A DNA stretch of 64,000 nucleotides from Enterococcus songbeiensis (GTDB taxonomy: Bacteria; Bacillota; Bacilli; Lactobacillales; Enterococcaceae), in assembly GCF_005405265.1 (NCBI RefSeq), contig NZ_BJDS01000001.1, forward strand, positions 1 through 64,000. Reading direction: 5' to 3'. Shown piece after piece: positions 57,001 to 60,000 of this stretch; position 1 is the first letter of the stretch; each line of letters begins with the position of its first letter. The position numbers are program-made.

Positions 57001-60000
57001 AATTGCTAAGAAAATTGGCAATGCACCAAATATAAATAATGCTCTCCAACCAAATACTGGAATAATCAATGCTGCTGCGATTGCTGCAATAATACTTCCA
57101 ACTTGTCCCGCAATTGTGACAAAAGAATTTACTCGTCCTCTTCTTTCAGAAGAAAAGGTATCGGCCATCATCGACATAATAACTCCGTATTCTCCACCCC
57201 CACCAACACCGACAAAGAAACGCAAAACATACACAATTACAATATTATTAGCAAAGGCCATCCCGCCGGTCGCAATAGCGAAAATTGCTACTGTAAGTAC
57301 AAACACTTTTGCTCGGCCTTTTCTATCAGCTAAAGTCCCAAAAATCAGTCCACCAGCAAGCATGCCGATATTCGTAATAGTTGAAATGAATCCCCCCGCT
57401 GTTCCACTTATACCAAAGTCTGTAATCATAGTTGCCAGTACATAAGAAAGCAACATCGTGCTCATGCTCTGTAATCCCAATCCACTCATAGACATCGCTA
57501 AAATACTTTTTTCTGGCCGACTCATTAGCTTTTTCTGATAGTCACGTTCTAAATTCTTCTCCATAATCTGCTCCTTTATAAAAATATTGACATTGATTGC
57601 TACGTAAATCCAAACGATTTTTACCTCTTCAAACAAAAAACAGACTCGATACATCCCACCGCTCGTGAAATGGATCAAGCCTGCATACCAGTTACTCTCC
57701 AACAATTTTTATTCAATTTTTCGATATTGTTGTGCTTGCGTTGCATTAATAACGTCCCCACGTTTCTTCCCAAAACCGATGCCTCGTTGCACTAGCACCC
57801 ACTCTCCTTTCCATTCAATTTCTTTTGCGATTACTGCGTTATGCGACAACACTTGAACTACCACCATATTCCCACCCTTTCTGATAGTAAAAATCGACAT
57901 AAAAAAAGAGGTACTAGACGACTGTCCAATACCTCTGACATAGCAAATAAACGAGCAATAACTTCCCTTAAAATTCTCCTAATTTTATCAAAAAAGTGCG
58001 ATAAACCGGTAGAAATCCAGCAAAAAATTAGGTACAATTAACAAGGTTAGTGCTTGCACTAACTATGGCAACTTGATTGATCAGGTCCAACTGATTTTTC
58101 AAGGCCTTGTGGTTTAGCGCCAACTAAACTGCAAGGTGCCTTTTTTTATTCGATTTAAACTATCTGAGTCTATTCTAATGAAAACGATTCCTATCTGTCA
58201 AGCGAACAAGGGTAAAAAGTTAAAAAAGATAGAATTTTCCGATAAGAGTAAGCCAACTCATGTAGTAGAGCATTTTTTTATTCAAAATCTACAGGTCTTG
58301 CAACTTCATTGCTTTCATCAAATTCAAATGCAATAGCATCCAAAATACGTTGACTTGATTCTCCATCCCCGTACGGATTTGAAGCTTTTGCCATTGCATG
58401 ATAGTGTTCCTCGTTATCGAGAAGTAATGAAGTTTCTTCAAAAACAGTTGCTTCATCCGTACCAACTAGTTTCAACGTTCCAGCTTCAATACCTTCTGGT
58501 CTTTCAGTTGTATCACGAAGAACTAGTACAGGTACACCAAGAGACGGTGCTTCTTCTTGAACTCCACCAGAATCAGACATAATCAAATGACTTTTATTGG
58601 CAATATTTTGAAAATCAACTACATCTAATGGTTCAATCAATTTGATTCGATCAGATTTAATCAGTGTATTTCTTGCCAGCTCACGAACTTTAGGATTTTT
58701 ATGGATTGGAAAAACAACCGCAATATCTTCATACTTTTCAATTAATCGATTGATTGCATGAAATACGTTTTCCATAGGTTTACCAAGATTTTCCCGTCGG
58801 TGCATTGTCACTAGAATAATTTTTTTATCACTAAGTTCATCAAGAAGTTCATTTTTATAATCTTCTCGTACTGTATACTTCATAGCATCAATAGCTGTGT
58901 TCCCAGTGATAAAAATCCTGCTTTCCTCATGATTTTCTACCAACAGATTTTGTTTACTTTGTGTAGTTGGCGCAAAGTAAATATCCGCTAATACATCTGT
59001 CACTTGCCGATTCATCTCTTCAGGAAAAGGCGAATATTTGTTCCAGGTACGTAATCCTGCTTCAACGTGACCAATCTTAATTTGACGATAGAAGCCTGCG
59101 ATAGATGCTGCAAAAGTTGTTGTTGTATCACCATGGACTAAAATAATATCCGGTTTTGCTTCTACAAGTACACTATCCAGCTCTTTGATTACACGACTAG
59201 TGATATCCGTTAACGTTTGTCCATCCTTCATAATGTTTAAATCATAATCTGGAGTAACTTGAAATACTTCCAGAACTTGATCTAACATTTGTCTGTGTTG
59301 TGCTGTAACAGTCACGATTGACTCAAAACGTTCATCTGCTTCAATAGCTTTCACTAATGGAGCCATTTTGATTGCTTCAGGTCGAGTGCCAAATACGGTC
59401 ATTATTTTTATTTTAGTCATTTTTATACTCCTATAATTTGTAAGCATCATCAAGGAGATTGTGTGTATCTAAAATTAATTTTCCTTTTAGCTTATCCAAG
59501 TTTTCTTTTAGATGGGTATGTTCTACCATTAGAACAATAATTTGAGAATTCTCTAAGAACGAATCAAAGTCCGTCACTTGATTATTCATAATTTGCTCTT
59601 TTAACATTGGATCAAATACTCGAAATGGTTCAGCAAAATTACTTTCCATTTTTTCAAATAGTTGCAACGTTGGACTTTCACGGATATCATCTACATCTTG
59701 TTTGTATGTCATACCATAGATACCAATTTTATTTCTATCCGTGATATTATTTTCTTTCATGATCGTAGTTAGACGATCCAAGACCAATTCAGGCATAGAT
59801 TCATTGATCTCTAACGCTGTTGAAATCAAATTTGTTAATCGGGGATAATCTCCCACCAAAAACCATGGATCTACTGGGATACAATGCCCCCCTACACCAG
59901 GTCCAGGACTTAGAATATTAACCCGTGGATGCATATTTGCAATTCGAATGATTTCATGCACGTCTAAGTCATCATGTCTAGCAATTTTAGTTAGCTCATT

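Follow-up and report, generated by a model that had tools for sequence, protein, structure and literature searches.

A natural stand-alone CAT-domain protein and an adjacent RAT-like hairpin as a candidate antitermination pair within a portable regulatory cassette of Enterococcus

Introduction

Transcription antiterminators of the BglG/SacY/LicT/GlcT family carry an N-terminal co-antiterminator (CAT) RNA-binding domain followed by two regulatory domains, PRD1 and PRD2, which are phosphorylated by components of the phosphotransferase system (PTS), namely enzyme II (EII) and HPr. Their target, the ribonucleic antiterminator (RAT), is ~29 nt long, and its 3' half is also the 5' arm of an intrinsic terminator. 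In Escherichia coli bglGFB and Bacillus subtilis licT-bglS, the antiterminator gene shares a transcript with the structural genes and is directly followed by the RAT/terminator that gates them; in bglGFB the regulator gene sits between two terminators, both of which have RATs, and the regulator is PTS-controlled. Here, we describe a locus in the first 64,000 nt of contig NZ_BJDS01000001.1 of Enterococcus songbeiensis (assembly GCF_005405265.1; this whole stretch is hereafter the window) that encodes a 52-aa CAT protein, homologous to the N-terminal domain of this family but without PRD1 and PRD2, next to a RAT-like hairpin.

According to a 2025 review, CAT antiterminators are "always dependent of regulatory domains", and >95% of sequences have two PRDs (PMC12591593). 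CAT domains isolated from LicT, SacT, SacY, and GlcT nevertheless bind RATs and antiterminate in vivo if their expression suffices for dimers to form (PMC3105407). No description of a natural PRD-less CAT protein was found in the literature that we searched and, given that the review has CAT always dependent on regulatory domains, such a protein would be new to the family.

Results

A 52-residue CAT protein without PRDs

We assign a probability of about 0.6 to the reading that the 52-aa protein is a natural PRD-less antiterminator whose cognate target is the RAT-like hairpin 8 nt past its own stop codon (Table 1). As the original prediction had it, the open reading frame (ORF) has its own Shine-Dalgarno sequence, and AGAAAGGGUGGGA(A/G)UAUG around the start codon is kept in the window, L002, and avium groups (L numbers denote related loci). 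The claimed CAT identity also held, since the Pfam CAT_RBD profile (PF03123) matched the protein with E = 1.3e-12 and 47.9 bits (gathering cutoff 25) across profile positions 1-45 of 57. Its best relatives of solved structure were the CAT domain of SacY (1AUU, E = 1.7e-4), GlcT (3RIO), and the CAT domain of LicT (1L1C), and BLASTP aligned it to the GlcT encoded in the window with 37% identity over 41 aa of the CAT domain. The NCBIfam equivalog models for GlcT and LicT gave 36.6 bits (cutoff 320) and 27 bits (cutoff 300), and covered only residues 1 to 46-47. The (S/N)HNA and GxGIGFxKK motifs are intact. An NCBI entry, 'CAT RNA binding domain-containing protein [Enterococcus songbeiensis]', is 100% identical to the window protein.

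The canonical BglG/SacY architecture, in which PRD1 and PRD2 lie C-terminal to CAT, is absent: the protein stops at residue 52 and contains no PRD or equivalent histidine-bearing domain for phosphorylation by EII/HPr. Nor did any frame between the CAT stop codon and the start of the following MFS gene, an interval of 145 nt only, encode a PRD, in agreement with what had been claimed; the single long frame matched MFS families only, and the small ORFs matched nothing. In size and boundaries, the protein resembles the engineered CAT domains SacY(1-55), LicT-CAT, SacT-CAT, and GlcT-CAT, whose PTS-free antitermination when dimeric (PMC3105407) is the behavior that we would predict for it. Those are laboratory truncations, whereas the CAT gene of the window evolved naturally, is under selection, and has a promoter-leader-terminator and a RAT of its own. 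Because PRDs are absent and isolated CAT domains are active in vivo (PMC3105407), we infer that its RNA binding would be constitutive and independent of the PTS.

A RAT-like hairpin overlaps a terminator next to the CAT stop codon

When the window was searched for the RAT-like motif with ≤3 mismatches, a single match was found (0.00 expected by chance), at the position given in the original prediction. Its fold is that of a RAT, in which a lower stem and a CUG/CAG top stem are separated by an internal loop, a G-C pair, and an asymmetric loop. The lower stem, GGAGAG...UUGAUCC, is not the canonical GGAUUG...AAAACC. A terminator, T2, which ends in U6GU3, takes the 3' 13 nt of the RAT as its 5' arm, so that the two structures overlap in the competition layout that had been proposed. 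T2 has a minimum free energy (MFE) of -26 kcal/mol (z = -3.5) compared with -5.2 kcal/mol for the RAT alone; the terminator is thus favored thermodynamically over the RAT stem. The LicT RAT, for which we used what we take to be its sequence, gave -6.4 kcal/mol in the same calculation, and the energies of the window pair are typical for RAT systems. Rfam 15 covariance models matched nothing meaningful in the RAT/T2 region at E ≤ 10.

Every stand-alone CAT ORF that we found is followed by a RAT-like hairpin with the canonical GUNACUG...CAGGC core, starting 1-10 nt past its stop codon, and an overlapping terminator was predicted in every lineage. The RAT is nearly invariant across lineages (GGAGRGURACUG-loop-CAGGCUUGAUCC), and 98.8% of the cells in its alignment are paired, as opposed to 33-58% when the partners are slid. 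A candidate binding site of the expected type, a RAT-like hairpin overlapping an intrinsic terminator, is therefore kept in all lineages.

The close spacing raises the question of whether the act of translation, rather than the CAT product, shifts the folding between RAT and T2, as in an attenuator of the leader-peptide type. With the stop codon 1-10 nt 5' of the RAT in all lineages, a terminating ribosome would cover the 5' side of the RAT. However, a ribosome at the stop codon would fall short of the 5' arm of T2, which begins 17 nt into the RAT, and would if anything favor termination; moreover, the amino acid sequence is under selection and keeps the signature of the CAT fold, which a pure upstream ORF would not need. 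We consider this explanation very unlikely.

The window also contains a classical system of the family, a PRD-containing internal example in the same genome. Full-length glcT is directly followed by a ptsG-like gene, and upstream of it lie a promoter (TTGACA...TACAAT) and a terminator overlapped by a canonical GlcT-type RAT (GUGACUAGAUCAUACUAGGCAUGG); the RAT strands, GUGACUAG...CUAGGCAUGG, overlap this terminator at 25685-25759. A GUNACUG...CAGGC core is common to the glcT RAT and the RAT beside the CAT gene, whereas the top stem and lower stem differ. Since CAT domains act as dimers and cross-talk within the family is documented (PMC3105407, PMC1635312), the presence of a full-length GlcT in the same window allows for a small CAT protein that modulates other antiterminators, whether through inactive heterodimers (for example with GlcT), through competition for RATs, or by binding its own RAT without blocking termination. 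We consider such a role unlikely. The CAT gene is always found beside its own RAT/T2, this RAT differs from that of GlcT in the top and lower stems, gene and RAT stay together ahead of unrelated operons, and the published isolated CAT domains activate rather than inhibit (PMC3105407).

Stand-alone CAT proteins form a small family under selection

Close homologues of the window protein (75-94% identity) are all 52 aa long, longer gene calls merely beginning at upstream in-frame ATGs. More distant stand-alone versions were found by a profile search of 1.8 billion representative proteins combined with inspection of the loci: the Enterococcus avium/raffinosus/devriesei group, Enterococcus canis, and the metagenomic locus L009 each have a version of 51 aa, and L061 has one of 61 aa. 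A CAT-only ORF of 51-52 aa is thus present in at least five lineages (the window group, the L002 group, the avium/raffinosus/devriesei group, E. canis, and L009), at protein identities to the window protein down to 40-46%. All stand-alone CAT proteins stop 4-5 residues past an aromatic residue aligned with the last CAT-domain strand in SacY, LicT, and GlcT, with the C-terminal ends of these three reference sequences being as we assume them. No loci were confirmed when genome contigs were scanned with a protein pattern from the CAT alignment.

Among five cassettes of the window and L002 groups, the ratio of nonsynonymous to synonymous substitution rates (dN/dS) was 0.08-0.25 at dS 0.6-1.6; the closest pair, L002 and L003, gave 0.44 at dS 0.20. 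These ratios indicate that the CAT ORF is under purifying selection.

We also considered whether the ORF is the decaying 5' remnant of a full-length licT/bglG-type gene, in other words a functionless truncation pseudogene. Its closest characterized relatives are full-length antiterminators, most other short CAT matches look like fragments or frameshifts of full-length genes, and two cassettes (L004 and L014) have broken copies. Full-length orthologues, which would have spoken for a recent truncation, were not found, and the loci of the at least five lineages named above are PRD-less with RAT/T2 behind the ORF. With a constant length of 51-52 aa and a stop at the domain boundary in these lineages, a dN/dS of 0.08-0.25 at dS up to 1.6, a conserved Shine-Dalgarno sequence of its own, and 145 nt of RAT/T2 without a trace of PRD in any frame before the next gene, the ORF is not a recent truncation, and we regard a functionless remnant as extremely improbable.

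Most of the remaining short CAT matches in the 1.8-billion-protein search resemble fragments or frameshifted full-length genes, and we rejected them as family members. For this reason, the true stand-alone CAT family appears to be small and centered on Enterococcaceae.

Several loci depart from the common arrangement. In L004 (Enterococcus mediterraneensis, UWOP01000001.1, 8001-8141), a 28-nt tandem duplication, CGGGGCATCGGATTTGGGAAGAAACGAG (two copies), within the CAT ORF causes a frameshift and a 46-aa product; this copy, which lies ahead of a mannose-PTS operon, is apparently inactivated unless the duplication is an assembly error. In L014 (Bacillota metagenome-assembled genome JAEZWY010000144.1), and also in L039 and L041, the leader and T1 described below are intact and IS66-family genes interrupt the CAT gene or stand in its place, and in L031 an integrase-like gene lies downstream of leader/T1; these IS66-family and integrase-like assignments were made by eye from translated ORFs. 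In L059 (888-1082), a single low-coverage metagenomic lineage, the CAT ORF runs into RAT/T2 and lacks the C-terminal strand, which makes it a deletion derivative or an artefact of the assembly. We also noted a second RAT subtype, GGGGAGU(U)AC-loop-AGGCUUAACCC, which overlaps a terminator in L061 and in L017 (Tetragenococcus halophilus). L061 (294-479 and 843-915) has the 61-aa CAT-only ORF, a small helix-turn-helix gene, and the second-subtype RAT, followed by a sulfatase-ABC operon. In L017 this RAT is located ~200 nt past T1, between the leader and a PTS EIIA_2 gene, and the locus lacks a CAT gene in cis.

The CAT gene is preceded by a structured leader and a terminator

The original prediction had placed a hairpin-U7 terminator immediately upstream of the ORF, with no promoter visible in between, and had suggested that expression of the ORF is gated. 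The terminator, T1, was confirmed, with a fold of -19.1 kcal/mol and compensatory changes at 9 of its 13 pairs across lineages. No promoter-like site was found between T1 and the CAT ORF; the sole minus-strand promoter-like site in 57000-58600 is the sigma-70-type promoter of Table 1, ~300 nt upstream, whose position and flanking TGTTCGCTTGACA are kept in related cassettes. Gating is likewise supported at the level of sequence, and T1 proved to be the 3' end of a conserved structured leader.

The promoter spacer contains a site resembling a catabolite-responsive element (cre). A full match to the cre consensus was also found in L001, and the other cassettes have near-matches, with an (A)nCG(N)TTTC core, in the same place. 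This suggests CcpA-mediated catabolite repression.

Sequence covariation indicates that the ~270 nt between the start site and T1 are a structured RNA. Its parts follow one another in the order A-tract, three-way junction, AUAGU, hairpin P4, AUUGUACC (invariant in leaders), a variable region with a conserved UUNCUAS, UUAUUU..CUAUGUCA, and T1. AUAGU and AUUGUA(CC) are invariant or nearly so in the aligned leaders. Across the junction and P4, 15 pairs have compensatory changes (4 pairs in P4), 88.6% of cells are paired compared with 25-41% when the partners are slid, and the covariation score was reached by 0 of 500 shuffles. Helices P1 and P3 are invariant and hence are without support from covariation. 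In the MFE fold of the read-through RNA, GCUAUG just 5' of T1 can pair with CAUAGU (58062-58067); this pairing is preserved through changes in L003, L006, L017, and L022, which argues for it weakly.

A long-range helix, P0, pairs the ~14 nt at the start of the transcript with a segment beyond T1. Its strands covary: between lineages the sequence is wholly different and the complementarity is kept, for instance as GAUAGAAAUAAAUC/GAUUUAUUUCUAUC, GUAGUAAUAAAUCC/GGAUUUAUUACUAC, and GAAUAGAAACCG/CGGUUUCUAUUC. In the window, P0 together with the pairing of the A-tract and the T1 U-tract amounts to -20.0 kcal/mol, whereas shuffled sequences give -7.0 (sd 2.3) on average. When the read-through transcript is folded to its MFE, P0 closes the whole leader and is extended by this A-tract/U-tract pairing. 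Equivalents of P0 were found in L010, L013, L015, L017, L021, L022, L023, and L027; in cassettes without a CAT gene, the 3' strand lies 26-140 nt past T1, with a conserved GCAAGYC motif just before it. P0 can form only in read-through RNA, where it might serve as an RNase III site, as a stabilizer of the 5' end, or as part of a switch. A reading of the P0 repeat as a miniature inverted-repeat transposable element or invertible element was rejected, as its arms differ compensatorily between copies and use G.U pairs.

A covariance model of the leader (R1) identified one copy in the window (134 bits in the sense orientation vs 31 bits antisense), one copy in each related locus, and copies in 20 metagenomic contigs; the leader is always in a 5' untranslated region and in sense orientation. 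An alternative in which the leader belongs to the opposite strand, with P2 and a U-run as a plus-strand terminator, was rejected on these scores and because the G.U pairs of P0 fit the leader-sense, minus strand only. We noted that P2 and the A-tract read on the plus strand (58104-58147) do resemble a terminator, a hairpin followed by GCCUUUUUUU; this might stop antisense transcripts from entering the mnaA-like gene cluster upstream, or might simply result from the A-tract.

Rfam 15 gave nothing meaningful at E ≤ 10 for the window leader or where the leader lies in eight related loci, and neither its sequence strings nor a comparable Enterococcus RNA motif was described in the literature that we searched. 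The leader is thus apparently undescribed so far. Like terminator-type riboswitches and protein-bound leaders, it consists of a covarying multi-helix 5' domain followed by an intrinsic terminator. It differs from riboswitches in having no Rfam 15 match, very diverse downstream genes, and no alternative antiterminator pairing that we could find; a covarying helix that joins the 5' end to a segment past the terminator is also unusual. Two candidate antiterminator pairings, CUGACCAAU of the P3 region with AUUGGACAG of the T1 5' arm, and UUGUACCU with AGGUA, were dropped because both were weak (-2 to -10 kcal/mol) and did not surpass shuffled or non-cognate controls.

The leader also occurs without the CAT gene

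We scanned species-representative genomes with a DNA pattern derived from the leader. A leader without a CAT gene behind T1 was found in Enterococcus casseliflavus, Enterococcus innesii, 'Ca. E. moelleringii', and Enterococcus spp. ZJ1622, UD-01, and DIV0210g, as well as in T. halophilus and Vagococcus fessus; searches of plasmids found the leader on two Enterococcus faecium plasmids only. With or without a CAT gene, it is also present in L006, L009, L010, L013, L015, L017, L021, L022, L023, L026, L027, and others. The genes behind CAT-less leaders, named from annotation or from our own reading of translated sequences, include a GH2 enzyme, a probable alpha-glucuronidase (putative GH67), ABC sugar-binding proteins, arginine deiminase (arcA), a LytTR-type two-component system, and EIIA_2 with an ascorbate-type EIIC. 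Because the downstream operons are very diverse, a substrate-specific ligand of the leader is unlikely, and a global signal or a protein factor fits better as the signal at T1.

These loci bear on whether the CAT protein acts mainly on leader/T1, or as a chaperone of the leader, in positive autoregulation, the RAT being secondary. Leader and CAT gene are tightly linked in the cassette, and the CUUGA/UCAAG and GGC motifs of the leader recur in the 3' half of the RAT. The leader contains no GUNACUG...CAGGC core, however, this core being found elsewhere in the window at the glcT RAT, and the same leader and T1 are equally conserved at many loci where no CAT gene lies behind T1. We consider a leader target quite unlikely. 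More generally, this alternative and the two outlined above, modulation of other antiterminators and control by translation, are disfavored because the gene is invariably paired with its own distinct RAT/T2 and because the leader occurs without the gene.

The cassette is portable across operons

Two findings go beyond the original prediction: the CAT gene is part of a portable cassette, and the leader is itself a widespread RNA element. As judged from nucleotide conservation, which extends from ~8-25 nt 5' of the -35 box (TGTTCGCTTGACA) to just past the U-tract of T2, the promoter, leader, T1, CAT gene, and RAT/T2 make up one conserved unit of ~640 bp that is portable across operons.

In the window, the cassette precedes an operon of six contiguous genes, as had been reported, which overlap or are ≤14 nt apart. 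They encode an MFS transporter, a uridine-phosphorylase-like protein, and four NitT/TauT-type ABC proteins; the best NCBIfam names for the ABC importer are weak and SaoA/SaoP/SaoX-like. The gene content suggests uptake and phosphorolysis of a nucleoside-like compound. Elsewhere, the cassette is followed by PTS EIIA_2-EIIB-EIIC and GH1 genes (L001, from E. sp. JM9B, and L002); by EamA, a lactose-family PTS, and MlrC (L003, the avium group, and E. canis, where the full set was called in L003 and the others were read from ORFs); by a mannose-family PTS, SIS, and aminotransferase genes (L004); by an ABC sugar transporter (L005); and by GH1-EIIC (L009). Several of these operons, including those of the window and L005, have no PTS genes at all. 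Movement of the cassette as one unit in front of unrelated operons is as expected of a self-contained regulator-plus-target.

NCBI lists two such proteins in E. sp. JM9B, P0002 (94% identical) and P0004, the locus of which we read. This strain probably holds at least two cassettes.

Table 1. Features of the cassette and of the glcT region in the window
Feature	Position	Strand	Details
Stand-alone CAT (co-antiterminator) RNA-binding protein	57709-57867	-	52 aa; Pfam CAT_RBD; ATG at 57867, stop at 57709
Shine-Dalgarno sequence of the CAT gene	57872-57880	-	AAAGGGUGG; 4 nt 5' of the ATG
RAT-like hairpin	57672-57700	-	GGAGAGUAACUGGUAUGCAGGCUUGAUCC; 8 nt past the CAT stop
Intrinsic terminator T2	57630-57684	-	Hairpin 57640-57684, then U6GU3; from folding
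Intrinsic terminator T1, end of the leader	57901-57936	-	13-bp stem (5 GC pairs), 4-nt loop, U7
Leader, predicted structured RNA	57901-58164	-	~270 nt from start site to T1
P0, 5' strand	58151-58164	-	GAUAGUUUAAAUCG; first ~14 nt of the transcript, complementary to 57883-57896
P0, 3' strand	57883-57896	-	CGAUUUUUACUAUC; downstream of T1, ends 3 nt before the CAT Shine-Dalgarno sequence
A-tract	58141-58150	-	AAUAAAAAAA; near-invariant in all 16-17 aligned leaders
Three-way junction	58067-58140	-	P1 GGCA/UGCC, long variable P2 hairpin, P3 CUUGA/UCAAG with UCAG/CUGA; RNAalifold consensus
AUAGU, P4 hairpin, conserved UAAUUGUACC	58031-58066	-	P4 at 58046-58063; from the alignment
Conserved block immediately 5' of T1	57937-57951	-	UUUAUUUGCUAUGUC; UUAUUU..CUAUGUCA invariant across lineages
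Sigma-70-type promoter	58172-58201	-	TTGACA-18-TAGAAT; 11/12 consensus positions
cre-like site in the promoter spacer	58178-58192	+	ATGAAAACGATTCCT; full match to the degenerate cre consensus, which we take to be WTGNAANCGNWNNCW
Six-gene operon	52335-57564	-	MFS, uridine-phosphorylase-like PNP_UDP_1, NitT/TauT-type ABC ATPase, permease, SsuA-like binding protein, permease
Full-length GlcT	24769-25635	-	Directly followed by a ptsG-like gene
glcT upstream region	25685-25813	-	Promoter, RAT, and overlapping terminator

Discussion

The arrangement described here resembles that of bglGFB in that a regulator gene lies between two terminators, and differs from it in that T1 lacks a RAT and lies at the end of a large structured leader. 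RNA binding, dimerization, and antitermination by the CAT protein, control by CcpA, and the feed-forward behavior outlined below are inferred from sequence and from the family. Transcription would start at the promoter at 58201-58172, subject to catabolite repression if the cre-like site in its spacer is functional. RNA polymerase would pass the ~270-nt leader and mostly halt at T1, so that leader/T1 would set how often the CAT gene is reached. Transcripts that read through T1 would carry the CAT gene and halt at T2, since T2 is far more stable than the RAT hairpin, giving a short CAT mRNA. Translated from such transcripts, the CAT protein would build up and dimerize, and its dimers would bind the RAT on later transcripts and hold back the 5' arm of T2, allowing polymerase to enter the MFS-Udp-ABC operon. 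In the absence of PRDs, the protein would receive no phosphorylation input from the PTS, and its activity would be set by concentration alone. The published dimer dependence of isolated CAT domains fits such a concentration-gated, PTS-independent switch. The cassette would then act as a coherent feed-forward AND gate, in which expression of the operon needs both ongoing read-through of T1 and accumulated CAT protein. Such a gate should delay expression and impose a threshold, and sister cassettes with the same RAT might be cross-activated; the latter is plausible because E. sp. JM9B probably holds at least two cassettes and the RATs are near-identical.

Several observations weigh against a PRD-less antiterminator acting on the adjacent RAT. 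The AlphaFold2 monomer model of the CAT protein, built from an 8-sequence alignment, had low confidence (pLDDT 59), and the CAT fold is for this reason assigned by homology. The RAT showed a single compensatory change, A-U to G-C, covariation being minimal because its sequence is almost invariant. Nascent-transcript folds and duplex scans found no conserved antiterminator that competes with T1. Loss of the CAT gene is evidently tolerated, as seen in the frameshift of L004 and the interruption of L014. Finally, a constitutive antiterminator beside its own terminator would look redundant unless delay, threshold, or cross-talk is useful.

Strong covariation, lack of an Rfam match, and wide use make the leader a concrete candidate for a new regulatory RNA class. 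We tentatively propose, as a possibility that we hold to be less likely than its contrary, that it is a plug-in 5' controller of catabolic and transport operons in Enterococcaceae, either acting as a riboswitch that reads a global metabolic signal or being bound by a global RNA-binding factor, and that a subset of leaders has been joined to a PRD-less CAT protein and a RAT/terminator to give a portable two-stage termination cascade, from RNA sensor to protein antiterminator to operon.

In the BglG/SacY paradigm, CAT is an output module that is always set by PRDs and the PTS. A natural CAT-only protein with its RAT would, if our reading is true, change this picture: the output module would work alone and be controlled purely by its amount. 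At 52 aa and 29 nt, the two would also make a natural protein-RNA antitermination pair of minimal size that could serve mechanistic studies and synthetic biology. The cassette shows a regulator and its target moving jointly in front of unrelated operons, and its leader, which precedes sugar, nucleoside, and arginine catabolic operons, is a candidate new class of cis-regulatory RNA in Enterococcus relatives, including E. faecium plasmids.

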